The notes under the pieces were generated by a model. It made no database searches, had not been told where the DNA came from, and saw only the letters and a program-made list of their open reading frames with translations. The position numbers and the translations under genes were made by a program. A DNA stretch of 64,000 bases from Eledone cirrhosa (taxonomy: Eukaryota). Position 1 is the stretch's first letter. Every line of letters begins with the position of its first letter. Below, piece by piece: positions 22,190-58,849 of the stretch. The stretch lies in the NCBI GenBank assembly GCA_964016885.1, contig OZ024740.1, positions 28,954,001-29,018,000 on the forward strand, in the 5' to 3' direction.

Positions 22190-24189
22190 CCTTCACCACT
22201 GCCAAGGTCCAGAACCACTAGTCGACCCTCTGGGTTCAAATGTACCATCTGTGTTGCGAGACCCAGATGTTTTTGCAGCAGAATGACAACCCCACCCCCA
22301 CCTCCGGGCTGACAGAGAGATGCGTGCATCTCAAAGTCATCAAAGGTGGGGGCCAGCTGTCGCACGTTTCTGATCCGAGCCTCGCAAATAACCATCACAT
22401 CTATACGTTGTGACCTGAGGTCATTTAGAAGCATTGCTTGCTTCCAAGTTGAGCCCAGGCCACGCGCATTTAAACAGCCTACTCTTAGCATGGCCATGTT
22501 GGTGGTGAAGAGAAAAGGCACTTACCTCTCTGCGTCCCGGGTATCGGGCTGCACAATTTCCATTAGGGTGGGGGATGGGTTGTTGGGTGGGGTGGTGGTT
22601 TGTGGAGGTATAGGGGCATCAGTGTGTTGTGTGGTTGGGGAGTTTAGAGTTGTGTGGGTGTTTGGGGAAGGGGTGGGGTAGTTTTTTAGGAGGACGCGGT
22701 TAATGGGCCCGACGCAGGGGGGACCCACGTCCTCTTTAAAGTTGTTTTTTAAAGTTTTATAGGTGTCCTGTGGAGCCTTAATCATTTTGAGGTGGGGGAA
22801 ATCCCCTGCCTGGGTGAAGTTAGGCCCTTGGGTTTTTATTAGATTGTTGTTGTACACAATGTTTAACAGTTTTTTGTTTCTTGTTTATGTATGTGTATGC
22901 ATGTTTTTGTTTTTGTGTGGTGTTTTTTGTTTGCTGTTGTTGTGAGCTCTTTTGTGTTGGTGTCAGTGTTATGTTTTGGGGAGGGGTTGTTTTCATTTGT
23001 ATGTCTGAGGTGTGTTTTCTTTTTTTTCTTTTGATTGTGTGGAAGTGCTCCTCCTCGTCTGACGACGAACTAGGGTCATCTTCCGCGTTGGAGGGGAGGG
23101 GTATATTTTCGGGTTGTGTTTGCGGTGCGGGTGTTTTGGAAATTGTTTTTGTTTTTTGAGTGGGGGGGGGGATGGGTTGGACATTGTTTTGTTTTGGTTT
23201 GATCTGGTGGTTGTTTTTGTAGTGGTAGTTGTGGTGATTGTGTTGGCTGTGCAGTTGTTGGTGGTGTAGGCAGGATTGGGGTTTTCTTATTGATTTGGGG
23301 ACAGACAGCCCTCAGGTGACCTCTGGTTCCGCAGAGGTAACACGAGGGCCGCCTACCCTCAACGGTAATGTTGATGAAAATTTGATCATCCAGTATGACG
23401 CGTTCAGGGATCTGGGCGATCCTTTCGGGCGTCATTTGAACTACAAGTTCGAGGCTCGTTCCACTGAACGCGTCACCCGATGCCTTTCCCATGGACACCA
23501 GCGTGTCATCATCCAGGTTCAGGAAACCTGTCAAAACCCACCATATGTCCATAATCGGCAGGATGGTGTGGATTTTTATTTTTTGTGTTCTTCTACCCAT
23601 GTACGTAGGGTAAAAGATGTATGCGGTGGATGTGATTGGTTTGATGGACAGTTTCACTGCTGTGTCTCTGTCCTTCATGAGAATGGATAGACTCCCGTAG
23701 AGTCTATCCTTCTGAATGAAGGTGATGTCCTTCATGACGTCTTTTAAAACCAGCTCTATCTCCCTCTGTGATGGTTGAGCTGGTTTTTTGCTTTTATTCG
23801 AGATTGTCCTAAACATGACAGTGTTTAGGAGTCTCTGGCTTTTTAGTTCCGGGGGGGGGGGGGGATGGATCGTGAATGAACCATTTTCCCCGTACACTAT
23901 ATATTTTTTGGCATCTGCCAGTAGCTCCTTCGCTTTGGTTATATCTACTGGCAGATAGTCGAGGGTTTTCCTTGCCGTCTCGGCGAAGGAGAAATTTTGT
24001 TTGTTTGTGTTGCTGTTGTAGTTGGTGGTGTTGTTGTTATCATTGTTGTTGTTATTACAGTTATTGGTCTTGTTGTTGTTGTTATTGTTATTGGTGTTGT
24101 TTTCGTCCGTCGCCTTGTTGTTATTGTTGCTGTTGCTGGTGCCGCTGGTTCTTTGGTTTGTTGCCATGGCAGCGTCAAGTTGTTGGTCA
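22190..24189 (-). mobile_element. Tx1/L1-clade LINE 5' part: ORF1 (24167 to 22522, frameshifted) and start of ORF2 APE
   Basis: Zinc knuckle CYLCGTRGHLRAVC; ORF2 MAMLRVGCLNARGL..ICEAR..GGGGVVIL, cut off by the PLE at 22190. Confidence 0.9.
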
Positions 24190-24351
24190 TAGATAAATAT
24201 ACACGGGTGTGTATGATTGTGTATAGAAGATTATATTAATAAGAGGAATTCCAACTTTGTCTGATTTACTCGTTTTATTTACAATCCTTTAACATTTATA
24301 ATGGTATTATAATGAAATAGTATGATAGAATATTAAATTCTAAGTGTTAAT

Positions 24352-24390
24352 TGAACAAGTACTTTCATGCTTTCGCAATCTTCAGGTTCA
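24352..24390 (-). ncRNA. Minimal hammerhead ribozyme
   Basis: Minus strand TGAAC-CTGAAGA-TTGCGAAAGCAT-GAAA-GTAC-TT-GTTCA. Confidence 0.85.
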
Positions 24391-24728
24391 TAATATGTGG
24401 TGACAGTCAAGTTTGCAATTTTCAACTGTAATAAGATGGGTAATTTTTCTACCTTTTATACATTTTATACAGGGAAAAGTGGCTCCAGAATCCTAAGTCT
24501 TGCAAACTGTATTTCGACCAATCAGTGTGTAGTTTCACTGAATTACTAAAACTGATTGGTTTAAGCGTCACGGCTGGTTGATCATGTCTAACGATCAATA
24601 ATTAATCATATCCAAAGCATCAATTGTTTTGCTATTTTTAGAAATGATGAAAATAGCATTTTCTATTAATCATCACCATCAACCTCACTTTTATTATTAT
24701 TATTATTGTTGTTGTTGTTGTTGTTGTT

Positions 24729-24776
<48 letters not shown>

Positions 24777-24832: not shown

Positions 24833-25477
24833 TTATTGTTCATTTAGCTTGGGTTTGAATTTATCAATAAAATTCTTTTCTTTGATTTTTCTCTTGATTT
24901 CACTTGGGCTGTGTAATTTGTAGAATGGGAATATTATAAATATTCCCTGACTACATGTTGCTAGATGGTTACTTAGGGGTATCTGACGGACATTTGGGTC
25001 TCTGATTTGTTGACGGTGTACCCGTGCACGTTCCGATAGTGCATTTCCAGTTTGACCGACATAGAGTTCTTCACAATTCGGGCATTTAATGCAGTAAATT
25101 AGATTTCTGCTTTTGCAGTTCATATTTGCATTTGGGAATATTTTTCCAGTTTTTGTTTTCATATATTGACCGGCGTGTATGGATTGACATGTGCCGCATC
25201 GACTATCATTGCATTTAGATACAGTGAATGATTGGTCTTTGTTGTTATGGTCAAACTTTGCTTTTGTTAGTAATTGCTTCAAATTTTTTGGCTGTCTTTT
25301 ACTAAGAGTCAAAGATCGATCTGTGATTAAGCCTTTTAATTCATTACTTTGAGCAATAATCGGTAGGTTTGCTTTGGCAGTGTTGAAGATATTCTGGTGA
25401 CATGGGTTGTGTGTCATTATAAATGGTATGACCAGTTCTTGGTTTCTTCTTCCTTGTGTTGTCCTAAGTTGTTGCAT
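24833..25477 (-). pseudogene. PLE GIY-YIG endonuclease C-terminal fragment
   Basis: KRQPKNLKQLL, Cx4CxxC linker (CNDSRCGTC), NLIYCIKC..C..LYVGQTG, R..H, EK.FI..F.P.LN. Confidence 0.9.
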
Positions 25478-25592
25478 GGGTATTTTTATAGCCCACTGTA
25501 TGCCATTTTATTGATAAATTCAAACCCAAGCTAAATGAACAATAATAACGCTTAGGGGTATTACTTCTACTATCACTATGACTACGACCACT

Positions 25593-25655
<63 letters not shown>

Positions 25656-36823: not shown

Positions 36824-36890
<67 letters not shown>

Positions 36891-36892
<2 letters not shown>

Positions 36893-37467
36893 CTTTCTTT
36901 TTATTTGCCACCAGGGCATCAAAAGTGGGACAAGTACAAAGGGGGGACTTTACATGCAAAGGCGTCCTCAATATGGAGGGGGCAATAACAGGATATAAAA
37001 GTATAAAAATAAAATAAAATATAACAAAATAAATTTTGTAACAAAATCCTCAATAGGGAGGAGGCGCCTTGGGGGGTCGCACACACCCCCGAAAAAAGTG
37101 TTGAACCCTTCTCCTCAGGAGCACAGAGAGGGGGTGCTCCCTTGGTCTTTCATCTTCCTCACCTATAGTTTGATGTAGAGTGAAGGCCCATTCACACGGG
37201 CCATTCTCGCCACTTTCACCCATCTTTCATAAAAACGGCTGGGGTGCAGCACCTCTCTCTCCATCCTGATCCTTCTTCCGAAATGATATCGGAAGAAACG
37301 GACCAGTTGTTGGCCAGAGAGAAAGGTGTCTGACCTCAGTCCTTTCAGACGCGTCCACCATACAACCTCTTTCTCCATGGTTATTACGCACAGAAACACT
37401 GCCTCTCCTTCGTTTTTGAAGAGGGGAGGCGGCTTGATCGTTACAATAGACTCGGTGGTCAACCGGA
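36891..37467 (-). mobile_element. 5'-truncated Tx1 LINE 3' end with (TATC)n tail
   Basis: ORF2 C-terminus ..WWTRLKGL..FYERWVKVARMARVNGPSLYIKL; near-identical to 52208-52783. Confidence 0.92.
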
Positions 37468-38322: not shown

Positions 38323-38332
38323 GAATGCTATG

Positions 38333-38662
38333 CTCTCTTCCCGGCATTTTGTTGAAAGATGGGTGAGAGAAGCAAGTATGGCCCGAATGAATGGGCCTTC
38401 TCTGAGTATGTGTCTGTAAATTAAAGGTGGAAAACTGGGAGAGGGCACTTGCCCTGGTGGTCAGGGCCACTGTGGTCTTTTAATGGGCTTTCTCCACAAA
38501 TGTCCCTTGGAAGTCTCCCCCCTATTGGGGAATTTTTCTTTGTTATTTTATTTCAACCTCTGTTTTTTTTACACGCAGAAATGCCCATTTGTACCGTCCT
38601 GTATTGTCCTGTACTGTCCTTAATGTCTACTTTATGTGAACCCTTGTGGTTAATAAAGAAAA

Positions 38663-38663
<1 letters not shown>
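38333..38663 (+). mobile_element. Tx1 3'-end fragment with (TTA)n tail
   Basis: Homologous to 44304-44630; flanked on both sides by (TTA)nTTGAATGCTATG. Confidence 0.9.
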
Positions 38664-38717
<54 letters not shown>

Positions 38718-38920: not shown

Positions 38921-40984
38921 ATGGCTACGAAAAAGAATTTTCATAGGTCACTCCCACTCATTCCGTCTTCTTCTTCCTCAATCGTCACTACAGCAGAGAG
39001 AAGATTGTCTCTCTCCCTCCCTTCTCTTTCGCAAGCGACGACAGAAAAGAAAAGTCTCGTGCAAAGCGTGCAAGATTTCTCCACGACGACGACGACAACG
39101 ACGAAACAGGTGTGCGGGAAATACGAAAACCCATTTCATTCGTCTGACGTGAGGAATAATAGCAGTAGCAGCCGTAATAACAGCAGCAACAGTGACAATG
39201 AAAACAACAGTAGCAGCCGCAACAGCATCAGCAGCAGCATAAACAACAACAGCATTAGCAGCAGCAACAACAACAACAACCACAGCAACAGCGGCGGCGG
39301 CAGTAGTCGTAGTACCTGCAGCAACAACAAAAGTAACAGCAGCTCTGACGACAACAACAACCACAACAGCAGCAAAGAAAAACCAATCTCGTTTGCAGGT
39401 ATCGCGAAGAACCTGGAAACAATCCACATAACAAATGAGGAATTAGAAGAAACGAAGAAGATGGTGACAAAAACTCGACACCGAGCAATCTGCAAGGCAG
39501 CGGAAAATTTTTTCGAAACCCAACAGCACTGTATGGTCACGTACCGTACAGTAAGTACAAAATCCCGTAGGGTTGAAAGAGCCACAGAGGCTCAAATACA
39601 AAAAGCATTGGGGTCTGTGTGGCAGCGGAAAACGCACATCACCCGAGGCAAGAAATATGCCACCGTAGACGTACTTTTTGCCACACCCCAGGAGGAAAAC
39701 GCTCAAACCTTAGTGACCCTAAGGAGCGAGGAAATGGTGTTGGTGCCCTCCTACTGCGGACAAAAAATTGTGAGGGTCAAACTGACCCACGTCCCCCCAA
39801 GCCGCGTCTGTTCTCGTCGGAATCGAGGACAAAACAACTGTACTGCAAGTGCAGAAAAAAGTAAGAGAAGATTGGGTCGGCACCTCCATTGAGATGTTAA
39901 TCCAAACCAACCAGGAGTGCATCGAAGCTATCCCGGATGTGATAGGCTTCGATAACGGCACTCAACTGCCCATAAGTGTTGAGGGCAAACGCCCGAAATG
40001 CTTTCGCTGTGGATAGAAGACTCACCTCAGGGCCTTCTGCAACGAGAAGACCCTGAGAAAGGAGAAAACCCCCCTCCTTCCGAAACCGGCTTCACGGCTA
40101 CCAGCAACAGGACAAGCGGCAACCAGGAACGATAGGTCCGTGGCACCCATACCCACGCCACGGAAATCAAAAACAGCAGCAGCAGTGGAAGTATTAACAA
40201 CGACAACAGCAATACCAAATGCAGCTGCAACAGAGACTCCAGTGCAAACATCACCAACAACAACAAATGAAAGAGTGGAGCCTTACCCCTCCCCGACCTC
40301 ACAGAATCAGACATGGAGTGTGAGGTGGGAGAGGGATGGCAAAAGGTCGTAAGAAGGCACAAACGCAGAAGCAGCGCATCGTCGCCTTTGAAAAGGGAGG
40401 AAAGAAATGAAAAAAGGGTAAAGTCTACTGCAAAGAGACTCACAGCAGCAACACCACCAAGACCATCACCACCCACACTAGCACCACCATCACCACCGGC
40501 GACAACCCCACCGCCAACAACAACAACACCTTCAACACCACCACCACAAGCACCAACATCGCAAACACAACAACAAAACACACACACCCAGCAAAAACGA
40601 CAAGAAAATAGCAGAACCACACCTCACCCCCAGAAAGTCAAATGCACAGCAATAAATACACACAACAAGAAACTAATGACTTACATAATTGAACACACAG
40701 ACATTTCACAACACGACTACATAATACCAGCACCAATCAAAACGCCAACTAACATAAGACTGCTAAAAATAGCACAGAAACAATACACAAACATTAAAAC
40801 GAAATTCCCCAACGCAGTTGGTGATTTCAGAGACCTAGGAGGAACTATCAACCCAAGAGTATATTCGGACATACTCATAGAAGAGCCGACGACCAGCCGA
40901 AGGGACGATTCAACGGTCACTTCACCAGACGATCAAGTGAAAAGGGATGTAAAAACCATCCCTCCTCTACGAAAAGTACGGTAA
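38921..40984 (+). pseudogene. Tx1 ORF1 (disrupted)
   Basis: MATKK start, SFA.IA, V.YRTVS, zinc knuckle remnant EGKRPKCFRCG near 39980; homologous to ORF1 at 23-24 kb and 57-59 kb. Confidence 0.85.
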
Positions 40985-41017
40985 GTGGTCTTTCCATCTT
41001 TTCCACTCTATTTTAAA

Positions 41018-44000
41018 CATGACCTCACCCAGAATAGGCAGCATAAATGCGCGTGGCTTGGGGTCGTCATGGAAGCAGGGTCACCTGCTCAACGACCTCA
41101 GGTAACTAAACATAGATGTAGTGGACATCAGCGAGACCAGAATCTCCGAAGCACGGCCTTCGCACCGATCTTCGGCGGCTACGATGTGTACGCATCTCCC
41201 AGCCGTCCTGGATCGGAGGGAGGAGTTGCTGTGGTTTTTCGGAGAGGTTTGGATCTCGCCATACGGGCCATCTTCCTGGACCCAGAGGGTAAGTTGGTGG
41301 TGCTGGACGTGACCGGCGGAGATGGGAAAGCTTTCAGGCTAGTGGCCGTCTATACCCCGACAGGAGCAGGGCGGCCTGATTTCTTCCGGCGTCTGGAGAC
41401 CTTTATTGGAACGTCCCGCTCTTTAGTGTTAATGGGCGACTGGAACGGGATCTTAGATGCACGCTGGGACTGTGTGGGATTAGAGGATAGGGGTGGAGGG
41501 TGCAAGAGCCTCACCAACCTGCTCAGGCGTTTTGAACTGTCTGACAGGTACCGATTGGATTTCCCGAATGTGCCAATGTGGACTTGGACAAATCGCATAG
41601 GGTCATCCAGATCATATCTAGATAGAGTATTTTGTAGGGAAATAGATAGGTCTAGCATAGGCTGTCCACAATTCAAGATAGTCAGCTACACGGACCACAA
41701 ATTCGTGATCTGTGTGCTTGACTTAGATAGGCTTCATAGACGAGGACCCGGTTACTGGAAGCTAAACGCGTCCTTACCAGCGCGCAAGGCCTACAGAGAC
41801 CGGATTAGCGAACTAGTTAAGCGGGCGTTGACGGGGGCCATCGTCAACAACAAGTGGTGGTTTGCTCTGAAAAGAGCCATTAGAATAGAATCCATTAGGT
41901 TTAGTAAGGCTTTAGCAATAGAGAAAAATAGAGCAGGGGGAGAACTAGTTAGAAAATTAGACGAGGCGCTTAGCAAAGGCATTGCGACCGACGTGCTTGC
42001 GGCGAAATTGGCCCTTGACCAATTCTTGAATGCAAAGCACGAAGGCTGCGTTGTCAGAGCAAGGGTGCGTGCTCTCAGACACGAGGGGACGAAAACCGTT
42101 CAATGGGCCCGAGTGGCGGAGGCGCGTCGTGGGAACAAAGCCACGATCCGGTCTTTGGTGGACCACGACGGGCGCATGCTACTCGATCCCGGGCAAATGT
42201 GTGAAGCTTTTCAGCGACACTTCGCTCAGCTGTTCGGGGGCAGCGGTGGGCCGGGTCGAGGGATGGACTTTAGTGTCTACCTCGAAGGACTGCCGCGGCT
42301 CTCGGCCACTGAGGCGAAGTGTTGCGAAAGGCCGATAACAGCCGCTGAAGTAAGGGAGGAAATGACTGGCTGCACAAGTGGGAAATCGCCTGGTTTGGTT
42401 GGTCTGCCCTATGAACTTTACGTACAGATGCCAGACTTGTTCGGAGGCCTCTTGGCGGACGTCTACTGTAACTGGCAACAGAACGGGAGAAATCCCAGTT
42501 CTGTGAGCCGAGGAGCGGTGGCACTGCTGAGAAAGGATCCGAACAAGGGTGATAACATAGATAATTTCCGGCCCATAACACTGCTAAACACAGAGTTCAA
42601 GATTTTGGCCAAGGTGCTAGCAAAGATGTTGGCGCTTGTCGTTGGTGGTCTGGTGGGAGAGGCACAGACATGCGCCATTCCCGACAGATCCATCCACGAC
42701 AACCTCCACCTCATGCGATACATCGTAGAGAGGGTAGCTACGGAACCTGGCACGGGTGGGGCCTTGATCAATTTAGATCAGTCGAAAGCTTTCGATAGGG
42801 TCGACCATCGTTACCTAGCGGCAGTCCTGAGGGCGGCTGGCTTTGGGCCCGTCTTCAGGGGCTGGATCGCTGCCATGCACATCGACATCTGCTCTGTGGT
42901 GAGAGTGAACGGTCACCTGTCGGAACCGTTCAGCATCATGCGCTCAGTCCGCCAAGGAAGTCCGCTCTCGTCCCTCTTGTACGTATTGACTCTCGAGCCA
43001 TTAGTGCACAAACTGGAGACGTTGAGGGGCATCCCGCGCGAACTAGGATGCGGAAGATCCGTGTCAGCATATGCGGACGATGTCACCGTAGTGGTGTCGA
43101 ACGCCAAACTCATCGAGGCGATCGGCACTACACTAAGAGAATACGAAGCGGTGACAGGAGCAATGATCAACCAGGAAAAGTCAGTGGGCCTGCAGCTCGG
43201 CACCTGGAGAGGCAGGTCCATGCCGTCCAACAGCGTCGTCGGACGCTGGACCGACGGACCGGCTAAATTGCTAGGGGTCTGGTTCGGTCCGGACCTCCAG
43301 ACGGACAAAAACTGGGACGAGGTGACGAGCAGGTTGGCTTCTCTCACCCAGAAATGGGCGGAGAGGAAGCTATCCCTGAAAGGTCGAGCGTACATCGCGT
43401 CTGTCATCTGCTACCGCCTGACCGTCGTACCTTGTCCTAAGCCTCGCCTGACTGCGCTGGAGCGTTTGCTCTTTCGCTTTTTGTAGAAGGGACGCGCTCC
43501 GATGGTCAGGTGGTCTATCTGTTGTCAACACCCGCTACGTGGAGGGCTGGGCATGCCGTGGCTGATGATGCGCAGGCACGCGCTCAGGCTACGACCTCTC
43601 CACCTCTTCCTCGACGGTAATCACGTGTGGTCACCGTTTGCTAGACACGTATTTCCCCAGCTCGTTTCCTTGACGGAGCTGCAGTCCTGGGTCAAGCGAA
43701 GACCGAGAAGGAGCGCCTGGAGACTGGAATGTCTTCAGGCGCTCACAGCCCTCGACCAATCGGGCAATGTGATCGGTGGAAACTCCACCTCGGCGTTCTA
43801 TAGAGGATTAGTGGAGGGGAAGAGCGACGACGTACTTGGGGAAACTCTAGGCGTCGACGAAAATCAACTAGCCAATCTCTTCGGAAGAACTTTCGGGCCA
43901 GGGCCTATGGACAACTTCCAGAAATCTCTGGCCTGGCAGAGCTACTGAGGAGCCTTACCAGTTCGGGATAAACTCTACAGGCATGGAGGTGCCGTCAGCC

Positions 44001-44384
44001 GGGCATGCCCGAGATGCGCGCAGGGCGACGACAATTGCTGACTTGTGGGTTTATGTCGAACACCTGCTGTCGCGTTTAGGACGGATCCGGCTATCATCTG
44101 AGTCCATCGTGAGGATTGCCCCGCCCTCCTCCTTTAGCCGGGAAGTGCAGGCAGTTTTTATCTGTCTGGTGGCCATGGCGAAAGAGATAGTATGGTGGAC
44201 ACGTCTGAAAGGGCTGAAGACGAGCACTTACATCTTCGGTGATGCTCTGATTGACTTTTTCAAATTTCATTTGAAAAGGAAAATCAGAGTAGAGAGGGAA
44301 GTGCTCTCTTCCCAGCATTTTGTTGAAAGATGGGTGAGAGAAGCAAGAATGGCCCGAGTGAATGGGCCTACTCTGAGTATATAA
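41018..44384 (+). pseudogene. Tx1 ORF2: APE endonuclease plus reverse transcriptase, several stops/frameshifts
   Basis: GDWN, SYLDR, TDHK, GPGYWKLN, KSPG..GLPYE, NFRPITLLN, LDQSKAFDRV, SVRQG, YADD. Confidence 0.95.
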
Positions 44385-44659
44385 CTGTAAATTAAAGGTG
44401 GAAAACTGGGAGAGGGCACTTGCCTTGGTGGTCAGGGTCATTGTGGCCTTTTACTGGGCTTTCTCCACAAATGTCCCTCCGAAGATTGGGAAATTTTTCA
44501 TTGTTATTTTTTGTTACATCCTCTGTTTTTTGTTTTTTACACGCAGAAATGCCCATTTGTACCGTCCTGTATTGTCCTGCACTGTCCTTAATGTCTACTT
44601 TATGTAAACCCTTGTGGTTAATAAAGAAATCATTATTATTATTATTATTATTATTTTTA

Positions 44660-45350
44660 TTATTCTTTGAGTCTCAGTCATTGATGTTATTTAACTGGAA
44701 AGTTTGTTGAAATGTATATAAAGCCGCTACCTGCAGCCTCAGATATTCAGGACGTATCGGAGGGTTCTTGCTGTTCCCAGCAAGCATGCCTTTTGAAGTG
44801 TTCCAAAAAGCGGGGCGGGACCAATTTTCTTTAACCATCCTTGGAAACTCTCTGAGATAGTCCCTAGTACACCTATGACAATCGGGACCACTTTGACTTT
44901 ATGGCAGTTCCAAATCCTTTTTACCTCCCACTTTAAGTCCTGGTATCGGTTAATTTTCTCCCTCTCCTTCTCTTGCACTATCGTATCGAATGGGCAGGCC
45001 ACATCCACAATCAGACACGATCTTTTTTCCTTGTCCAAAATCACAATGTCAGGTCTATTGTGTTCCAGTTTCTTGGCCGTCTGTATCCTAAAATCCTACA
45101 GCACCTTCACCTGTTCGTTTTCTATCACCGACTCTGGCTTATGCCCATACCACTTCTCAGAATGTGGTAAATTGTTTACTTTGCATAGATGCCAGTGGAT
45201 CACCCTGCCCATCACATCATGTCTCCAGCCTTTATAGTGAGTCTGGGCTAGGTGATTACACGCGGATACAATGTGAGCCACAGTCTCCTCTCTCTATCCA
45301 CAGATCCTGCACAGTAGGCTAGCCTCCTCCTTGTAAATATGGTGTTTTAA
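44660..45350 (-). mobile_element. R4/Dong-like RLE non-LTR retrotransposon, truncated copy 1, (TAA)n tail
   Basis: CCHC (C..C..ETVAHIVSAC), RHD, NRPDI..DK..IVDVACP.D..EK..RYQDL. Confidence 0.88.
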
Positions 45351-46318: not shown

Positions 46319-46320
46319 GT

Positions 46321-47707: not shown

Positions 47708-47895
47708 GCGGTGGATTGGCAGTATCGGTAGAGGGTCGGACGCCATACTTTGACGTATAGAGTTGCGGCGCTCGCCATTCAGAGTTCAAATCCCGCCGAG
47801 GTTAACTTTGCCTTTCATCCTTACGGGGTCGATAAAATAAAGTACCAGTTATGCACTGGGTAATTGCTGGCCTTGTGCCAAAAGTAGAAACAATT
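47708..47895 (+). mobile_element. Full-length tRNA-derived SINE
   Basis: GGCGGTGGATTGGCAGTATCGG...GAGTTCAAATCC...GTAGAAACAATTA; partial TSD ATTATTGAT. Confidence 0.93.
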
Positions 47896-48206
47896 ATTGA
47901 TAAGCTCCATACCGTCTGGGACGCATCCCGAACAAAATGTACATTGCTCGATATTTTGGAACAGACAACTATCGCAACAACTTGATGATCTAAACAAATA
48001 CACCGGTGTCAACAGTATGTATGTTTTACTAGGTTTTGGTCCAATAAACTAATCCGGTGTCTTCCTAACAAATGTGCCTACGTAATCACATTTTTGGTCA
48101 ATCAGCCACTTAAACCACTCTTATATTAACGGGTGCCTCCCATCGTACAGAAGAAGCGTTAACACAGCGGAGCTTACCAAATGTAATTATTGTAATGTCC
48201 ATCCAA

Positions 48207-48513
48207 CAGGGTTGGATTTAGACCTTCGAGGCCCAGGGCACCTCAGGTTTGGGGAGCCCCTCATATATAAAAATTAGAAAATATAGCCCCCCACCCCCAC
48301 CGCAATTTTACATAACAAAGTTAGCTTGGCGCAAGTAATAGGAATTGAACAGTTATACATACAGGTATTAAATTCAATAATCCTAACCCTCCTAAAACAA
48401 AAAAGCACAGCTGGGGGCACAAATAAATTGCTACGGCCGTCGCTGGTGAGGCCCCAATCTGTAAGGGCCCCGAAGCAATTTCTCCCCCCCCCCCACACAC
48501 TACATCCGGCACT
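48207..48513. mobile_element. Possible decayed hAT-like MITE
   Basis: Ends CAGGGTTGGATTTAG / TACATCCGGCACTA resemble CAGGGCCGGATTTA-type TIRs, with subterminal GGCCC motifs. Confidence 0.35.
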
Positions 48514-48934
48514 AACGTCCAGCCTGCAACCCAATCGAGAGAGATGAAGGTAGTTGACATATCCTAGAGGTGTGGGAAAAGAACTTCGAGGACCAACCGC
48601 CACAGCAAAGGTAGAAATAATCACAAATTTCCAGCCAATCGTCGTGGTAGTGATTTCCACAGCACTTATAGCAACAATTCAGCCATGAAATAATACATAA
48701 ATTTTACATGGAGCCTAAATATCCCCTGTACAAGTCCTACAATTCCCATGCGTTACCTCTTAATAAAGCCATCGATAAGTTGCTATTCAACGGGATGTCC
48801 ACCTCGTGATTTTCTACACCAGGATGGTACCCAGCTGAGGGACCCGGGAAATATATATTCAGCAACGATCAGCAACTTCACTGAAGTTGAAAGTGACTGT
48901 CATAGCCAATCTTACAACGCCAATCATCTCAGGC

Positions 48935-50060
48935 TTCTTCTTCTTCTTCTTCTTCTTCTTCTTCTTCTTCTTCTTCTTCTTCTTCTTCTTGCGAGAGTCG
49001 TGGGGGCAAGGTCCTCAAAAACTCTTTTCAGCGACTCTTGTCAGAAGCAACCGCCTCCAGTTAATCCAGCTGGATTTCCAAGTGTGACCAGCCAAGCTCA
49101 TGGATGTTTTCCAACTACTTTGATTATGGTTATCCTCTGATTCACCTGCCGGTTGGTTTTGCGCGTAAAATCTATTCAGCGATTCTTTCCTGAGGCATTC
49201 TAACAACATGCCTGTAGAATCGGGGCTGTGATCTCTCAATTTGGAGGAGTAGTGGCACTACCTGGAGTGACTCTCTGATCACCGAGACACGAACTCTATC
49301 GAGTAACGTTGACTCATAACCAAAGATTCATAACCATAAGGGTTGGAACGAATACCGAATTGAAGATAGGGAGTTTGGCCTTTTACGCCTAGCTCTCCTT
49401 TTCTGATTAATGAATGCTGAAGCTGGCGCATTACTGCAGAGGCACCTGCAATTATTGCGCTTAATTCGGCCTCCTGCTTTCCATAACTCATAAACACGGT
49501 CCCGAGATACTTGAACTTCTCTACCTTCTTCAGTGGAACTCCTTTCACATGTAGAGTGCACAATGCAGGCTTCCTTGAGAGGACGAGTGTCTCAGTATTT
49601 GCAGCACTGATTTTCATTTCAGCTATGCAGCACTTCGCATCAAACCTATCAAGTGCCCGTCATAGGTCACCTCCTGACGAGTTAAGTAATACAATGTCAT
49701 CTGGAAATTCCAGCGGACTGATCTTACTCCTGTCAGTCGAGATACCCCTTCCAGCCCGGCTGCGCGTGTCAATCCTGTTCATGAAAATAACGAACAGGAG
49801 AGGTGACACTACGCACCCTTGGCGGAGTCCGACTCCCACATTGAATGGTTTCGATCTAGCACCATTTATCCGAACGTAAATACTCGGATATTCGTATAGA
49901 GATATCAGTGCAAGAAGAAGCTGACCCTCGATCCCATACACCCATATCACGTTTTACAGCTGGTCCCACGGAACACGGTCATATGCCTGTTCGTAGTCTA
50001 CATAGCAAGAATACACCTCTTGGGAATACTTCAAAGATTTTTCAAAGAACTCCCTCGGTG
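48935..50060 (-). pseudogene. RTE-clade LINE 3' fragment with (GAA)n tail
   Basis: GLRQGCVVSPLLF.IFM, FPDD (FADD variant), KTE.L, VEKFKYLG; (TTC)n at 48935-48990. Confidence 0.85.
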
Positions 50061-50565
50061 TCTATATTTGATCGATGTGACGTATCCTCCTCATGAAATA
50101 AAACTGAAATCAGAGGAGCCCTTCAATCCATCTTACATTTACACCCCCTGAACCACAATCGAGGTTCTGAGAAAAGGTGACTGCATTATCCTCCACTCTA
50201 AGTACATTCAGCATTGGTTCAAAGTACTACATCAAGTCACTCTTGTATATCTGATACGAAGAAGAAATAAAGCATCCATTAGAACCATTATTATCCACCC
50301 GTTTAACAAGAACAGAAATATACATTGTATAGCCCACGTTACACCTTTCATTTAAAAGCCATATTGTTTCTAACATAGGTTCAAGTGCAGAAACAGGAAA
50401 GCAGGGAACAGTCGATAGAATAGACCCTAGTAATTAACTGGCACCTAGATTTGTCAGCACAGAACTGATGACAGGTAAACTTTACCCCTGTAGAGATTCA
50501 AACGAGACAAAAAGAGACTGGAGCAAACAGCTAGGAATTTTTAAGCGCTCTAACGACTTAATAAT

Positions 50566-50751
50566 TGTTTCTACATTTGGCACAAGGCCAGCAATTACCC
50601 AGTGTATTACTGGTACTTTATTTTATCGACCCCATAAGGATGAAAGACAAAGTTAACCTCGGCGGGATTTGAACCCAGAATGGCAAGGGTCGTAACTCTA
50701 TGCGTCAAAGCATGGCGTCCGACCCTCTACCGATACTGCCAAACCACCGCC
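50566..50751 (-). mobile_element. Young SINE with 18-bp TSD, inserted next to or into an older SINE (~50365-50560)
   Basis: CTCTAACGACTTAATAAT at 50548-50565 and 50752-50769. Confidence 0.95.
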
Positions 50752-51231
50752 CTCTAACGACTTAATAATGTAAAATATTTTCTCTCATTAATCGGAAATC
50801 ATTTTCCGAGCGACCGTAAATTCTCTTAACTATTCAATAAAAATATCATTAAGATGAGGTATAGCTGCATGAAAAACAAAATGTCGCTTTTGTTCACAAC
50901 AGATGATTCTGTCATCACCACATCAAAAGAAAAAAGCCGACTGTACATTTTAAGCCTATTTGGAAATCGGGAGTCAAATGGGAAAACACCATCACCTCAT
51001 TGGCAATGTTTGGTAAGGCACAGGCATTTAAAAATAGATCAAAGTGCTTCTTCCTCTGTTTTACAGAAACATTCATACGGTACCTTATCAAAGAGTAAAC
51101 TAATTTATATTTGCCATTGCATGACCAAATTCTACCCCGAGAAATTCAAACAGGATGTCACATCATTATGCATAACTAACGATAACATAACCAAGATAAA
51201 TAAATAAATATATATACATATATATATATGA

Positions 51232-51944: not shown

Positions 51945-52032
51945 TGTATGTATGTATGTATATATATATGTATATATATACATGTATGTAACTACGTATA
52001 TATGTATATATATACGTATAGCTAGATAGATA

Positions 52033-52188
52033 AATTTCTTTACTAGCCACAAGGGCACAAAAGAAGGGGACAAATGCAAATGGGGAGTTTACATACAGGT
52101 ATATGAAAATAAAACTTTTAATACAATAACAAATAACAATTGAAATCCCCAATAGGGGGGGGGTATACAGGGGTTGTACACACCCCGA
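52033..52188 (-). mobile_element. Tx1 3'UTR fragment
   Basis: TTTCTTTACTAGCCACAAGGGC..AATCCCCAATAGGGGG homologous to 53249-53380; GATA units on both sides. Confidence 0.8.
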
Positions 52189-52207
52189 CTAGATAGATAG
52201 ATAGATA

Positions 52208-53216
52208 ACTTTCTTTTTATTTGCCACTAGGGCATCAAAAGTGGGACAAGTACAAAGGGGGGACTTTACATGCAAAGGCGTCCTCAATATGGAGGGGGCA
52301 ATAACAAGATATAAAAGTATAAAAATAAAATAAAATATAACAAAATAAATTTTATAACAAAATCCTCAATAGGGAGGAGGCACCTTGGGGGGTCGCACAC
52401 AACCCCGAAAAAAAGTGTGCAACCCATCTCCTCAGGAGCACAGAGAGGGGGTGCTCCCTTGGTCTTTCATCTTCCTCACCTATAGTCTGATGTAGAGTGA
52501 AGGCCCATTCACACGGGCCATTCTCGCCACTTTCACCCATCTTTCATAAAAACGGCTGGGGTGCAGCACCTCTCTCTCCATCCTGATCCTTCTTCCGAAA
52601 TGATATCGGAAGAAACGGACCAGTTGTTGGCCAGAGAGAAAGGTGTCTGACCTCAGTCCTTTCAGACGCGTCCACCATACAACCTCTTTCTCCATGGCTA
52701 TTACGCACAGAAATACCGCCTCTCCTTCGTTTTTGAAGAGAGGAGGCGGCTTGATCGTTACAATAGACTCGGTGGTCAACCGGATCGGTCCCACCCTTGA
52801 CAGCAGTTGTTCGACATAACCCCACAGATCTGCAATGCCCGAGCAGTGTACCAAAGCCTGTGCAACGGTTTCCTCGTCTCACGCATCTGGGACAGATCTT
52901 TTTCGAGGAGTCCCTACCCGGGCGCCCGTGTCTGTAGAGACTTTCTCGAACGGGCAGAGCCCCTCGGTAGCAGTGCCAGGCCAGGGACCTCTGGAAGTTA
53001 TCCATGGGTCCCGGGCTGAATGTCCTACCGAACAGGTTGTCCAGTTCGTCTTCCTCCATGCCTAGGGCTTCTTCGAGGGTGTCGTCGCACCTGCTAACCA
53101 CCAGCCCTCTATAGAATGACGAGGTGGATTCTCCACTGACAGCCGGGTCCGCCTACCAGAGAGCCTTGAGCGCCTGGGCACACTCGGTGTACCAGGCGCT
53201 CAGTTTTCTCGGTCTT
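52208..53216 (-). mobile_element. 5'-truncated Tx1 LINE between (GATA)n tracts
   Basis: PGPMDNFQRSLAW.CYRGALPV, CPRC, ORF2 C-terminus and 3'UTR. Confidence 0.92.
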
Positions 53217-53249
<33 letters not shown>

Positions 53250-53482
53250 TTCTTTATTAGCCACAAGGGCGCAACAAGAAAGGGGACAATACAAAGACAT
53301 GCCGGGGATTTTACATACAGTCGTGTAAAAAATATAAAAACAAACAATTTCAACAATCGAAATCCCCAATAGGGGGGAGGCGCCACAAATGGGTTGTTTA
53401 ATACCCCGTCGATAGAACAACCCTCAACTCGAGGAGCGTGTTGTGCAAGTGCTCATTTCTTCCTTTTGCTCTCTTCCTCAAC

Positions 53483-56400
53483 CTACAGGCTTATAAACAG
53501 AGAAGGCCCAATCACTCGGGCCATTTTCGCTTCATTCACCCACCTTTCAGTAAATTTACTGGGGTGCAGTGCCTCTCTCTCCACCCTGATTCTCCTTCTA
53601 AAGTGATACTTAAAGAAGGGAATCAATTGTTGTCCGGAGAGAAAGGCATCTGTCCTCAGTCCTCTCAACCTCGTCCACCATATAACTTCTTTCACCATAG
53701 CCACCGTACAGAGGAAAACCGCCTCTCTTTCGTTTTTGAAAGAGTCTGGATGTTTGATCCTTACTATGGACTCGGCAGTCAACTGTATTTGTCCCATACG
53801 CGACAGCAGTTGTTCTGCATAGTTCCACAGGTCGCTTACGCCCGGGCAGTGTACAATTGCGTGTAGAACTGTTTCAATGTCCTGCGCACATCTTGGACAC
53901 GTCCTCTTGGAAGGATCCCTGCCAGGGCGTCCGTGCCTGTAGATCTTGTCACGAACCGGTAGAGCTCCTCGGTAGCACTGCCAGGCCAGGGACCTCTGGA
54001 AGTTGTCCATAGGTCCCGGGCGGAAAGTCCTACCAAACATACTGGTGAGCTCATCGTCTTCGACGCCCAGAGTCTCTCCGAGCACGTCGTCGCCCTTGTA
54101 ACGTACAATCCCTCTATAGAATGTCGAAGTGGAGTCTCCACTGATTGCTGCGCCCGCTTGCCAGAGGACTGTGAGCACCTGAGCGCATTCAATGTGCCAG
54201 GCGCCCATCGTTTTCGGTCTTTTCTTCACCCAGGACTGCAGCTCCGTTAGCGAGACGAGCTGTGGGAAAGCCTGTCTCACAAACGGTGCCCACACCGGTT
54301 GGGGGTCGGTGAGGAATACCTGGAGATGCCGCAGCCTCAGCGCATGTTTGCGCATCATCAGCCACGGCATTCCCAGCCCTCCGTTGGAAGGGTGCTGACA
54401 GCAGACGGATCTCCTCACCAGCGGAGCCTGCTTCTTCCACAGAAACTGGAAGAGCATGCGTTCCATCTTGGCGAGGTGTTCACGGGGACAAGGCACGACA
54501 GTCAAGCGGTAGTAGATGACGGACGCTATGAAAGTGTTCGCCACCTTCGCTCGACCTTTCAAGGACAGTTTGCATTCTGCCCACTTCTGAGTGAGTGCAA
54601 ACACCTTGGCCGTGACCTCGTTCCAGTTTTTCTCCACCCGGAGGTCTGGACCGAACCAGACCCCGAGCAATTTCACCGGTCCGTCCGTTCAGCGTCCAAC
54701 GACGCTGTCGGATGTCATCGGTTTGCCTCTCCACGTACCGAGTTGCAAACCGACAGACTTGTCTGGGTTTAGTTTTGCTCCCGTCAGCGTTTCGTATTCA
54801 TTCAGTATGTTGCCGATCACCCCGATTTCCGAGGTGCTCGACACCATTACTGTCACGTCGTCGGCATAAGCCGACGCCGCTTTGCGCAGTCCCGGTTCTA
54901 GGGGGATGCCCTGCAACAGCTCCAATTTCCGCAGTAGTGGCTCTAGAGTCAATACATACAGAATGGAGGAGAGAGGGCATCCCTGTCGAATGGAACGCGT
55001 GATTGCGAACGGCTCCGATAGGTAGCCGTTCACCTTGACCCTCGAGCAGATGCTGGTGTGCATCGCCTCGATCCATCCTCTGAACACGGGACCGAAACCG
55101 GCCGCCTTGAGAACCGCTTCCAAGTATCGATGGTCGACCCTATCGAATGCCTTAGACTAATCCAAGTTGATCAGAGCCCCACCGAAGCCGGGTTTACTAC
55201 CCACCCTCTCTATGATGTATCGCATGAGGTGGAGGTTGTCGTGTATGGACCTGGTCGGGATTGCACACGTTTGCGCTTTCCCTACCAGGTTCTCGACGAC
55301 AAGCGCCAACCTCGTCGCTAGCACCTTGGCCAAAATCTGTAACTCTGTGTTGAGCAGAGTTATGGGCCTGAAGTTGTTAATTTCGTCCCCCTTGTTCTCG
55401 TCTTTCCTGATCAGCGTTACTACGCCCTTGCCTGCAGAACTGGGAATTCTCCCGTTCTGCTGCCAATTGCAGTAGACGGCTTCGAGGACGCCAGAGAACA
55501 AGTCCGACATGCCTATGTAAAATTCGTAGGGTAGACCATCTAGACCGGGTGACTTGCGTTTCCCGCAGCGGCCCAGAGCGTCCCGTATCTCAGTGTCGGT
55601 GATCGGTCTTTCGCAGAACTCGGCGTCCGTGTTCGAGAGACGCGGCAGGCCGTCGAGGTATGAACTAAAGTCCATTGCCCCGTTCGGCTCACCGTCGTTC
55701 TGCTCAAACAGTCGCGCAAAGTGCCGCTGAAAGGCCGCGCACATTTGCTTGGGGTCAAGTAGCACGCGTCCGTTTTGGTCTTTCAAAGACCGAATCGTGG
55801 ACTTGTTGCCACTTTTTGCCTCCGCCACTCGGGCCCAGCTGACAGCTTTCGCTCCTTCGTTTCCTAGAGCACGTGTTTTGCTTCTGACCACGCAGCCTTC
55901 GTGTTTCGCATCGAAGAACTGGTCCAGTGCCGTTCTCGACGCTAACACGCTAGCCGCGTTGCCACTTCTAAGTGCCGCCTCTACCTTGGCTACTAGTTCT
56001 CTTTCTATTCTGTTTTTCTCTAAGGCTAACTCTCTGCTATACCCTATCGATTCTATTCTAATTGCTTTCTTGAGAGAGTACCACCATCTATTCTTGACGA
56101 TGGCTCCCGTTAACTGTTGCTTGACTAGTTTACTTATCCGTTCACTGTAAGCTTTACGTGCCGGCAACGACACGTTCAGCTTCCAGTATCCGGGACCCTG
56201 TCTATGTATTCTATCACGGTTGACTAAGCAGACGACTCACTTGTGATCTGAATAGGCAACCATGTGCATTCGTGGACAGCTTAACATATCCTTGTCCCTT
56301 TCTCTAATGAAGAACCTATCTAAATACGATCTAGATGTCCCACTGCGGTTTACCCACGTCCACTGTGGTGCAGTCGGGAAATCCAGTCGATACCTATCGG

Positions 56401-56929
56401 CCAGTTGGAATTGGCCGATTAAAGTTTTGAGGCTGTTGCACCCCGCTCTACTGGGACATGCTCCCACATAGTCCCATCGTGCATCTAGGATACCATTCCA
56501 GTCCCCCACTAAAAGTAAGGAGCGAGACGTTCCCAGAAAAGACTCTAGACGCTTAAAGAAGTCTGGCCGTGATTGCGATTGCCCGGTCGGGGCATAAACG
56601 GCCACCAGTCTGAAGGCTCCACCTCCGATACTGTTCACGTCTAGGACTACCAGTCTACCCTCCGGGTCCAAGTGTACTTGCTGTACTCCGACGTCCAGGT
56701 TCTTCCGAAACATAACAGCCACTCCACCTCCACCTCCTGGCTGACAGAGAGATGCGTAGATCTCAAAGTCGTCGAAGATGGGGGTTAGTTGCTGCCTGTT
56801 GTGGATTCTGGACTCGGTGATGGCTATCACATCCATACTGTGTGACCTAAGGTCGTTTAAAAGTTGGCCCTGTTTCCAGGGCATCCCTAGGCCACGCACA
56901 TTCACGGTTCCACCTCGTAAACCAGCCAT
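53483..56929 (-). pseudogene. Tx1 ORF2 (APE-RT-zinc finger), single frame with three nonsense codons
   Basis: NVRGL, GDWN, SDH, KSPGLDG, FRPITLLN, RQGCPLS, YADD, CPRC..ETVLHAIVHC; stops at 56237, 55157 and 54689. Confidence 0.95.
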
Positions 56930-56970
56930 GTTGGTGAAGAAAAGTTGGAGAAAAAGGACGAAAGGTGCAC

Positions 56971-58849
56971 TTACCTTTTCGTTTCCTGGAGATCGGGTTG
57001 TTCAATCTCCATTTGGGTGCTGGATGGGGTGTTGGGTGGGGTGGGGAAACATTTTAATAGGACGCGGTTGATGGGTTTGTGGCAGGGGTTGCCCACGTCC
57101 TGTGAAAATTGAATTTTCAGGTCTTTATAGGTTTCCATAGAAACCCTTATAAGTTTAAGGTGTGGAGACGATTCTGCCTTGACGAAAGTTTTGCCCTCCG
57201 TCTCCACCTTGGGGTTTTGGGAGATGACCTCCATCAAACTCTTGTTGTTTGTGTTGATGTATGCGTATTGTTGTTTGTGTTTTTGTTGTATTGTTTTAGT
57301 TTGTTGTTCATCCGGGAGTTTTCTTTTTATGGTGGGTGCTTGTGTTTGGGGTGGTGTTGGCGCTGGTTTTGCTGATAGGGAGATGTTTGACTGTGGTGTT
57401 GTTTGTGTTGTTGTTTGTGTCTGTGGTTGTGTGTTGGTGTTGGTGATTGGAGTTTTGGGGGTTTTGTGGTGTCTCTTTTTTTGTTTTTTGGATTTCCGCG
57501 GTTCTTCCTCTTCTTCACTTAAAGAAGGAGAAGCAGCTTCATCCGTCGATGAATAATCATCGTCAGGTGTGTGGGGTAAGGGTATGTTGTGTGGTGGTGG
57601 TGGTGTTTCGGTATGTGTGTTTGTGGTAGTGTTTGATGGAGTGGGATGGAGTGGGGATGTGTTCTTCAGAGGTGTTGTCTCTGTTTTTTTCTGTTGTTGT
57701 TGGTTGAGTTTCTGTTTGTTTAGGTGTGGTTGCTCGTTTCGTCTGTCGTTGTACTTGTGGTGGTGGTGGTGGTTGTTTTGGTGTTGGTGTTGGTAATAGC
57801 GTTTTTTTTATGATGTTGCTGTTGTGTGTTTGTGGACAAGAGGCTTTTAGGTGAGATGTGCTACCACAGCGAAAGCAGTGAAATTTTCTTCCTTCTACCG
57901 AAATGTTTATTTTGTTGTTATTATCAATAACGACTCTTTCGGGTATTTTGGAGATTCTCTCCGGTTTCATTTGCAACAGAATCTCCAAATCGGTGCCCGC
58001 CCACCTTTGTCGAATGGATTTTCGTATCGAAAGTATTATGTCTGTTTCTGGCTCTACGAAGCCAGCCAAGATCCACCAGATGTTAATGCTTGGAGGTATG
58101 TTTTTTATTTTTATTTTTTGTGTCCTTTTCCCCATGTATGTAGGGAAAAAGGTGTATGCTTTTGACACTATTGGTGTCACAGAGTTTTTTGGGGCCAGTG
58201 CCTCGCTTTTAAACAGTACGGAAACACTTCCGTACTGTTTTCCTCGCTGGAGAAAATCGACATTTCCTAGAATTTCCTTGAAAGAATCTTCTATATCTGA
58301 CTGATTAACAAATGTCGGTTTTCTTGATGAATTTGACACAGTCCTAAAAGTGACTGATCGGCGGTTTGTGTCTTCCTTTATTTCAAGGGGTGAGTTAATT
58401 CTAAACCCACCTCTTTCTTCGAAAGTTACAAATTTTCTCCCTTGCTGGAGCATATCTCTTGCGTTGGAGATATCAAGATTTATAAAATCTTGTTTCTTGT
58501 TGACTGTGTCAGCAAAAGACATTTTCTTTTTTTGTGTGATGTTGTTGTTAATAATGATGTTATCGTTGTTGGAAATTTTATGTGTAGATGTATCTGTAGA
58601 GTTGTTGATGTCTTTTTCATGTGTATGTATGTCAATGGGTTTTTTTGCCGTGTTTTCCCGTGTGTTATTGTCATTTTTCTCCGCTTCGGCGGTAGAAATT
58701 GTAACATTTTCAAATGTTGATATATTTTTTTCTTTTGTGACAGTATCTATGGCAACGTCCATAGCAGCAGAAGCAGATATAACGTTAATATCTGCCTCTT
58801 TCTCTCTCTTTTCTCTATTAACGTTCTCCAGCGTTCTAGTGTTGCTCAA
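56971..58849 (-). pseudogene. Tx1 ORF1 with CCHC knuckle, at least one frameshift
   Basis: SFAD, VTFRTVS, PTYMGKRTQKIKI, CFRCGSTSHLKASC. Confidence 0.88.

Follow-up and report, generated by a model that had tools for sequence, protein, structure and literature searches.

The window, a 64,000-nt stretch of genomic DNA from Eledone cirrhosa, carries three LINE copies in which the first open reading frame (ORF1) ends with a stop codon placed inside a consensus 5' splice site. LINEs are taken to make both of their proteins from one unspliced RNA, and the question raised by this locus is whether the whole of ORF2 can be treated as an intron. The original prediction had proposed either that splicing removes all of ORF2 or that the donor is a control element bound by U1. 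The reading preferred here, to which a probability of roughly 45% is assigned, is that a spliced ORF1-only mRNA is used for translation beside an unspliced RNA that is used for copying.

Class and layout of the elements

By their ORF2 domains, the elements are L1/Tx1-type LINEs. Exo_endo_phos and RVT_1 were matched in Pfam searches of ORF2, together with zf-RVT slightly below the cut-off, a feature of the L1/Tx1 group, and the nearest solved structure was human L1 ORF2p (E 4e-36, with R2 at 6e-17). All seven ORF1 translations that were read contain a CCHC knuckle of the form C-x2-C-x4-H-x4-C; a Pfam search of five ORF1 pieces matched no family and an ORF1 word search gave no matches. Simple repeats flank the elements on both sides, (TAGA)n in the case of family C and (ATT)n in the case of family B, and the same repeats also follow most of the 3' ends that were read. 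Members of the Tx1 clade have an ORF1 with a CCHC zinc knuckle and prefer repeated target sequences, and the Tx1 label is plausible for these LINEs. Metagenome contigs were searched for homologous loci and none were found. The features are collected in Table 1; the window copy of family C ORF2 contains three in-frame stops.

Table 1. LINE features in the window (positions are those of the window)
Feature	Position	Strand	Remarks
Family A ORF2 stub, truncated	22183..22497	-	ATG at 22497
Family A donor GTAAGT	22520..22525	-	in 30/30 best-matching copies; 864 exact copies
Family A ORF1 stop TAA	22524-22522	-	within donor GTAAGT
Family A ORF1	22522..24230	-	broken in window copy; CCHC knuckle
Family A 3' fragment	36890..37463	-	ORF2 stop TAG|G at 37163
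Family B 3' fragment	38331..38663	+	immediately 5' of full B copy
(ATT)n target repeat	38664..38717	+	5' flank of B
Family B ORF1	38921..40984	+	broken in window copy
Family B donor GTAAGT	40981..40986	+	stop TAA 40982-40984; in 30/30 best-matching copies
Family B ORF2 (endonuclease, RT)	41019..44390	+	contains stops
T-rich stretch and CAG, B 3' UTR	44525..44546	+	candidate substitute acceptor
(ATT)n repeat	44632..44664	+	3' end of B
Family A 3' fragment	52018..53217	-	ORF2 stop TAG|G at 52480
(TAGA)n repeat	53217..53249	+	3' end of C
Family C 3' UTR, putative terminal exon	53250..53482	-	AATAAA 224 nt past ORF2 stop
Family C ORF2 (Exo_endo_phos, RVT_1, zf-RVT)	53483..56929	-	TAG|G end at 53483
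Putative family C intron	56974-53483	-	3,492 nt
Family C spacer after donor	56930..56968	-	pyrimidine-rich; no AG ahead of ORF2 ATG
Family C donor GTAAGT	56969..56974	-	stop TAA 56973-56971; in 30/30 best-matching copies; 564 exact copies
Family C ORF1	56971..58855	-	frameshifted in window copy; CCHC knuckle
Second family C donor GTAAGT	59030..59035	-	about 19 nt from 5' end; 61 exact copies
(TAGA)n target repeat	59054..59129	+	5' flank of C

The donor motif at the end of ORF1

The predicted GTAAGT was verified at each of the three ORF1 ends. The hexamer occurs 19 times in the window when both strands are counted, approximately once per 6.7 kb, and was present at three of three ORF1 ends. The TAA within it does close ORF1, as judged from relatives at other sites of the genome, in which this frame stays open to the locus edge over 534-542 codons. 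The reported Arg-TAA ending applies to the three window copies and is not general: in related subfamilies, ORF1 ends with Arg-TAG, Arg-TGA or Gly-Lys-stop or reads through the donor, and the stop is located inside the donor, just past it or about 35 nt beyond. The ORF1 ends and spacers, described as divergent, are not fully so in families A and C, which share 68.5% identity over 432 nt at this junction. As the elements are related, the three window donors alone are not independent observations; it is the comparison across subfamilies that indicates more than inheritance.

Approximately 13,700 ORF2 starts of these LINEs are present genome-wide. When 72 junctions were picked by ORF2 sequence alone, blind to the donor, 65 of them had a 5' splice-site consensus where ORF1 ends. 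The variants GTAAGT, GTAGGT and GTGAGT differ only by A or G at positions +3 and +4, and ORF1 runs through the donor in phases 2, 1 and 0. Because all three phases are used, the Arg-stop ending appears to be incidental and the motif appears to be selected as nucleotides. On a tree of 20 rows, each of which was required to have the motif at +1, +2, +5 and +6, no changes were placed at positions -1, +1, +2, +5 and +6, and 2-8 changes were placed at the flanking positions; the 108 fourfold sites had a mean of 2.5 changes and 14 of them (13%) were invariant. This conservation across stop codons and reading frames gives good support to the view, in line with the prediction, that the motif is under selection as a splice donor or a U1-binding site. 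A possible protein counterpart was seen in the three best-scoring long ORF1 homologues, which have Gly-Lys within their last 2-7 residues; at the protein level, with the codons unseen, this may be the trace of a phase-1 donor. An O. bimaculoides ORF1 homologue is without terminal Gly-Lys. The last residues of the O. sinensis ORF1 model P0017 were tested for an origin in the 3' UTR, and this idea was dropped: in the related clade, 20-35 of about 3,200-3,700 windows have higher scores, and the residues are better matched by a stretch from the N-terminus of ORF2.

A second donor was found in most of the 5' UTRs examined. In family C it is followed by a 69-nt intron-like stretch, and branch-like and AG motifs are located 60-69 nt past the 5' UTR donors. 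Within family C, no spliced copies at this donor were found beside 61 5' ends.

It is quite unlikely that the motif has no nuclear role and has simply been inherited as a by-product of how ORF1 ends, or of translation termination and reinitiation. Such an origin would agree with the single ancestor of all rows, with the lack of any spliced product among the copies searched and with the constant placement of the motif shortly 5' of the ORF2 start, a possible site for a reinitiation signal. However, the motif outlasts three stop codons, three phases and the shifts in stop position, its five invariant positions stand against 13% of silent sites, and a second copy of the consensus is present in 5' UTRs that are dissimilar.

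The acceptor side and the search for spliced copies

The acceptor-like contexts at the ORF2 stops were found as described, with TAG|G in the three copies of families A and C and AAG|G in the TTA-family copy at 44395-44398. The proposal that joining an ORF1 AG to GTGA would rebuild Arg-stop holds within one family, as the fragments lacking ORF1 are family A 3' ends and the family A ORF1 end is located at 22525. The ORF2 stop is TAG in 18 of 20 rows. In family B and in L210, TAA replaces TAG and no AG is left, yet the B donor is still perfect. The numbers of changes on the tree at acceptor positions -1, +1 and +2 (1, 2 and 3, respectively) are within the range of silent sites. The predicted conservation beyond neighboring positions was seen for the GTAAGT-type donor; TAG|G is no more conserved than silent sites.

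An observation in favor of this acceptor came from the reading phase. In 11 of 17 subfamilies, with 6.7 expected, a stop in the phase matching ORF1 occurs at most three codons past the AG of the ORF2 stop (p 0.018-0.022, computed ignoring kinship). These stops are mostly outside the frame of ORF2, and TGA and TAA swap at the same place. No nearby stop was present in 6 of the 17 subfamilies, including window family C, and L200 has none in 300 nt. In subfamily K4c, TAG follows at once in the three phase-1 copies that have both ends, and the five phase-0 copies have another base there and a stop after two codons in their own phase; this pattern represents one event. According to a crude acceptor score of our own, the stop AG ranks seventh or better among about 260 AGs in 12 of 13 GATA-clade rows, 6th to 34th in the ATT clade and 18th in family A. 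A hairpin just 5' of the ORF2 stop was rejected; one double change (M5) was observed along with mismatches, and the pattern is mostly explained by the protein.

Retrocopies lacking exactly ORF2, which had been suggested as a test, were not found in a genome search of families A, B and C. For the family A junction, none of four candidate matches was spliced beside 2,657 3' ends, and none of three beside 864 donors. For the family C junction, none of eight and none of three candidates was spliced, beside 564 donors, which makes 1,428 donors for A and C together; for family B, none of twelve and none of two was spliced. The negatives for B and for the 3' ends of C, K4, I and J are without a denominator. 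No retrocopy using the family B 3' UTR acceptor candidate was found, and further acceptor-side scans yielded no spliced copies, with 7 of 8 matches in one scan judged by matched letters only. Even rare mobilization in trans should be visible in such searches, because no more than about 250 nt would separate the junction from the 3' end. L350 has the junction letters expected for a spliced family A copy and was rejected, as it contains an internal ORF2 deletion and point changes; L349 and L356-L358 have 7-nt deletions at the ORF2 stop and are not splice products. Contigs from four runs of one study, of unrecorded kind, were also read for joints. Among 15 joints listed out of 221, none was at the donor; in a second scan, 15 joints listed out of 297 included none in the LINEs, the tables being filled by SINEs located between B and C. 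One X4 contig is unspliced across the B donor (39653-41045); X4 may be DNA, and neither set of joints is evidence for or against splicing. The removal of the whole of ORF2 is indirectly supported by the stop-phase match and the rank of the stop AG, and opposed by the missing retrocopies, the silent-site level of acceptor conservation and the loss of the AG in B.

The main alternative, possible but less likely than the preferred reading, is that U1 snRNP binds the 5'-end and ORF1-end donors without a partner acceptor and with hardly any splicing, or none, and so blocks premature cleavage and polyadenylation or promotes transcription. The donor is much better conserved than the acceptor, B keeps it without an AG, and no spliced copy was found at either donor, not even at the family C 5' UTR donor, where a spliced RNA would be copied in cis. 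In 12 of 20 rows, the 550 nt preceding the donor contain A[AT]TAAA. In EVD, the donor has the additional role, as a U1 site, of preventing premature termination, and mutants support this suppression by U1 (PMC5580714). U1 sites alone would leave unexplained the stop-phase match with its stop-to-stop swaps and the 60-69 nt spacing of motifs past the 5' UTR donors, and A[AT]TAAA occurs only 0-2 times per row within ORF2.

It is also unlikely that the donor is spliced elsewhere, by a short intron fusing ORF1 in frame to ORF2, to a downstream AG in the 3' UTR or to host exons. A pyrimidine tract directly follows the donor (0.71-0.88 pyrimidine in 18 further representatives), A, B and C have AGs in the phase of ORF1 at 42-128 nt past the donor, and the CAG in the 3' UTR of B is the top-scoring AG in both B representatives by the crude score. 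The donor is missing from L106 along with roughly the next 128 nt, one base off a splice junction. A fusion RNA, however, keeps ORF2 and should be copied in cis, and no ORF1-ORF2 fusion product was found among the family C variant copies read (32 of 43 with +1 not G and 8/8 with +3 not A). The nearest introns would also be very short (42-52 nt), and not all families have their first AG in frame.

Proposed mechanism and comparison with known systems

According to the preferred reading of a spliced ORF1-only mRNA, the donor at the ORF1 end is likely joined to the AG of the ORF2 stop in part of the transcripts; U1 binding, the splice, the choice of acceptor and the two RNA pools are steps that we infer. 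The ORF1-only mRNA would be translated, and new insertions would be made from unspliced RNA alone. Family B would depend on a different acceptor, if on any. The likely gain is that a short mRNA would supply ORF1 protein in excess. In the spliced mRNA the stop would be located at the exon junction, not 3.4 kb ahead of the poly(A) signal, and nonsense-mediated decay would be avoided. A broader and more tentative proposal is an octopod-wide lineage of two-ORF LINEs with ORF2 as a regulated intron and an additional small intron in the 5' UTR. Spliced RNA would provide ORF1 protein, only fully unspliced RNA would be copied, and donor phase and first 3' UTR stop would have co-evolved with the ORF1 end kept intact. 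Such elements would be a non-LTR counterpart of the way in which retroviruses and copia divide their RNA pools.

That the donor has persisted while three stop codons and all three reading frames came into use suggests selection for U1 binding by the element itself. If ORF2 is spliced out, a LINE would have arrived by convergence at the means by which copia makes structural protein in excess, and the host would gain a splice switch that can turn mobility off while ORF1 stays on. If there is no splicing, these LINEs would provide a clear natural example of a transposon under U1 protection. Host genes may also be affected, as many of the approximately 13,700 copies with an ORF2 start beside the donor are probably located inside introns.

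The elements resemble Tx1-clade LINEs that target microsatellites in their APE endonuclease, RT, zinc-binding domain, CCHC knuckle of ORF1 and insertion into (GATA)n or (ATT)n. No conserved ORF1-end donor was found in open-licence papers on the Tx1 clade, and the open-licence literature, which excludes subscription papers and Repbase Reports, contained neither such a donor in any LINE nor a report of ORF2 as an intron. HAL1 (half-L1) is an ORF1-only form of an L1-type element; it consists of non-autonomous genomic families, whereas no ORF1-only genomic copy with the junction was found here (PMC5753468). Human L1 shares a donor in the 5' UTR and a cis preference by which RNA without protein is rarely copied. 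Its SpIREs, spliced within the 5' UTR or between 5' UTR and ORF1, have left retrocopies (one form accounts for about 1.8% of full-length insertions) and are described as dead ends (PMC5860796). Here, unlike in L1, it is the end of ORF1 that has the main donor, which is kept across frame changes, and no retrocopy was found. Further parallels are provided by LTR elements. Drosophila copia splices out all of pol (PMC5580714) and BARE has separate translated and replicated RNA pools (PMC3735527); in copia and the plant Ty1/copia elements EVD and BARE1, the donor marks where the structural ORF ends and the stop is made at or near the junction, and the copia intron is the whole pol region. These elements have one long ORF and need the splice for the Gag stop, whereas in the two-ORF LINEs analyzed here ORF1 has its own stop and the splice is putative.

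LINE families of the window

Three related LINE families, A, B and C, are present in the window together with 3' fragments, and the animal genome holding it comprises 3.0 Gb. ORF1 contains a CCHC knuckle and ORF2 encodes endonuclease, RT and zinc-binding domains, with human L1 ORF2p being the closest among solved structures. The nearest named homologues come from Argonauta and Octopus, which points to an octopod as the probable host, and structure and targets make membership in Tx1 likely. A genome-wide scan with the ORF2-start motif yielded 13,726 matches, compared with 5 for the reversed control. Elements are stacked head to tail in target repeats, about 5.9 kb apart and sometimes of different subfamilies; examples are the genome positions G000:C1:4225357-4255775 and C1:15476287-15493840 and the single locus L205, where a K4 ORF1 is joined to a B-type 3' end.

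Features located in the window, with further genomic copies (L-numbers) where these were identified
Feature	Position	Strand	Remarks
Family A, ORF1 and ORF2 stub	24230-22183	minus	
Family B element	38718-44631	plus	bounded by (ATT)n repeats
Family C element	59053-53250	minus	bounded by (TAGA)n repeats
Fragments without ORF1	52480 and 37163		3' ends of family A
Intron-like 5' UTR stretch, family C	59035-58967	minus	comparable stretches in other loci: L367-L369, L375, L376, L385, L386, L197, L207, L201, L196
Phase-2 3' UTR frame	53482-53400	minus	also L195, L209, L283
Hairpin, 5 bp	53522-53505	minus	22-40 nt before end of ORF2 stop
GIY-YIG frame, Penelope-like	24833-25507	minus	adjoins element A
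Similar-looking frame and inverted repeat	21669-22200		after family A ORF2 stub
Other non-LTR fragment	62286-63230	plus	RVT_1 match
Other non-LTR fragment	45457-46338	minus	
Other non-LTR fragment	9465-10163	plus	
Long minisatellite array	13185-17444		45-nt unit x95
Long minisatellite array	1-2878		24-nt unit x120
Short repeats, probably SINEs	about 46000-51000		very high depth; they dominate sequencing run X4

The donor at the end of ORF1

The original prediction read ORF2 as a possible intron between a GTAAGT donor at the ORF1 stop and a TAG|G acceptor at the ORF2 stop, and every site it named is present in the window. For each family, the 30 loci that match best all have an intact donor motif; being ranked by identity, they show the family state only. 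The ORF2-start motif served to choose 88 loci (30 taken as the first matches in order, the rest by motif variant, never by donor), and of the 72 distinct junctions read from them, 65 contain GT[AG][AG]GT. GTAGGT is found in subfamilies E, G, I and most J copies, and GTGAGT in F. Four of the seven junctions without a donor are one base off the consensus in families that have it, two were lost through truncation or deletion, and the remaining one, L200, reads GTAATT. Exact donor contexts number 864 for family A and 564 for family C; beside these intact family C copies, 43 have a changed +1 G, and 8 keep +1 but differ at +3.

Conservation of GTAAGT beyond its surroundings was borne out across subfamilies. 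In a tree of 20 representatives, which had to carry the motif at +1, +2, +5 and +6, no change occurred at donor positions -1, +1, +2, +5 and +6 (inclusion of L200, which was left out, adds one at +5). Positions +3 and +4 underwent A<->G changes only, a variation that U1 pairing tolerates. The donor flanks changed 2-8 times, and the 108 fourfold sites of ORF2 in the same tree changed 2.5 times on average, 14 being invariant. A pyrimidine-rich tract follows the donor (0.71-0.88 in 18 rows). The expected Arg-stop inside the donor held for A, B, C and E-I, where ORF1 crosses the donor in phase 2, and failed for K4 and M5, which cross it in phase 1 and end in Gly-Lys-stop, as well as for J and part of K4c, which read through it in phase 0, the J stop following 12 codons later. 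Judged from these comparisons, the donor is selected as a nucleotide sequence, and it is unlikely that the motif is a by-product. At the protein level, Gly-Lys occurs in the last 2-7 residues of the three best-scoring ORF1s among eight homologues, including Argonauta and O. sinensis, which is what a phase-1 donor would encode; the O. bimaculoides ORF1 model has no terminal Gly-Lys.

In 6 of 6 J copies (L181, L185, L197, L207, L249, L260), ORF2 opens with ATA in place of ATG, and a -1 shift makes it overlap the ORF1 TAG; translation might begin at a non-AUG codon or involve a frameshift. In the copy L092 (G000:C5:21848334), an ORF1 resembling that of family C ends precisely at the donor, and an unrelated tandem repeat comes next.

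The ORF2 stop as a putative acceptor

The acceptor is less certain than the donor. The ORF2 stop is TAG in 18 of the 20 tree rows, with G next in 17. As to the predicted conservation of YAG|G, the 1, 2 and 3 changes at -1, +1 and +2 fall inside the silent-site range, and TAG is replaced by TAA in B and L210. Among about 260 AGs ranked by a crude acceptor score with weights of our own, the stop AG comes seventh or better in 12 of 13 GATA-clade rows, but it takes only 18th place in A and places 6 to 34 in the ATT clade. The best-scoring AG in both B rows lies 158-164 nt into the 3' UTR. Splicing of the donor to an acceptor other than the stop AG is rather unlikely.

The best indirect sign for use of the stop AG is a frame match. 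Eleven of the 17 subfamilies (A, E, G, H, I, J, K4a, K4b, both K4c forms and M5) have a stop in the donor phase of ORF1 at most three codons past this AG, versus 6.7 expected (p = 0.018 exact, 0.022 by permutation), which is only suggestive because the subfamilies are kin and independent phase changes number about four. The spliced ORF1 protein would equal the unspliced one in A, E, G, H and I, and TGA and TAA are exchanged at one position outside the ORF2 frame between I and its neighbours and between K4a and K4b. No match is seen in C, F, three A-like groups and L200; in family C, spliced ORF1 would gain 27 codons. The phase-2 frame in the C and F 3' UTRs starts with a basic run whose spacing and several residues are, by eye, kept between subfamilies, and it would add a new basic tail to spliced ORF1. 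The hairpin near the ORF2 stop, which shows one double change (in M5), would be removed by splicing and might belong to the ORF2p recognition site.

Second donor, search for spliced copies and known systems

Some 20-90 nt from the 5' end, a second donor (GTAAGT, GTGAGT or GTAGGT) is present in A (3/3 copies), C (2/2 and the window copy), K4a (2/2), J (2/2), K4b, G, E and single copies of F and I; M5 and B lack it, and 5 of the 20 stretches examined yielded no 5' end. Counted by eye, a T-rich AG lies 67, 69 and 60 nt past it in A, C and J, respectively, accompanied by a branch-like motif in C and J. These intron-like stretches of 60-69 nt stand in otherwise dissimilar 5' UTRs.

Retrocopies lacking exactly ORF2, proposed as a trace of splicing, were not found in families A, B, C, F, K4, I and J by scans that demand exact flanks, which older copies escape. 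On the donor side, family C gave no junction among 3 matches lacking A at both +3 and +4, 8 lacking A at +3, and the 32 read of 43 lacking G at +1. Spliced copies numbered 0/3 in A and 0/12 and 0/2 in B. On the acceptor side, 0/4 were spliced in A, beside 2,657 3' ends, and I and J had no match. Acceptor-side matches in C and F turned out to be three small deletions, and the eight in K4 have ORF2 letters upstream; none is a spliced copy. The copy L106 (G000:C2:135302699) lacks the donor and the sequence up to about 128 nt downstream; this gap differs by one base from a splice junction at a YAG|G in the ORF2 start that is common to A, B and C. Cis preference lowers the expected number of spliced retrocopies, according to the available text of PMC5860796; nevertheless, capture should be easy for a junction lying some 250 nt before the 3' end. 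Thus either splicing seldom or never takes place, or the copying pool excludes spliced RNA. The 5' UTR stretch, whose loss would be passed on by copying in cis, is never missing either (0 beside 61 family C 5' ends), which fits both. U1 protection without splicing is the main alternative account of the donor, though a less likely one.

The donors, their conservation, the stop-AG context and the absence of retrocopies are observed; we infer, with a probability of roughly 0.45, that splicing of ORF2 gives an ORF1-only mRNA and that the unspliced RNA is copied. U1 would bind both donors and part of the RNA would be spliced, losing ORF2; spliced RNA would be translated into ORF1 protein, the stop codon falling at the junction, and unspliced RNA would yield ORF2 protein and also serve as template. 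Since ORF2 splicing, U1 protection and splicing elsewhere all count towards it, versus the by-product alone, the donor very probably acts in the nucleus.

No report of this donor and ORF2-intron arrangement in a LINE was found in the open-access literature; TART has introns in antisense RNA only, as stated in the accessible part of PMC1636488. Unlike L1 SpIREs and HAL1 (the latter from the portion available of PMC5753468), the LINEs described here left no genomic ORF1-only copy, and unlike copia, EVD and BARE they are not members of those LTR families. If spliced, they would work like copia, where an intron spanning all of pol is removed from the Gag RNA. In its proposed working, the donor would resemble EVD, where the U1 site of the Gag splice also blocks premature termination (both from the accessible text of PMC5580714), and the separation of RNA pools would resemble that of BARE, as far as described in the available part of PMC3735527.
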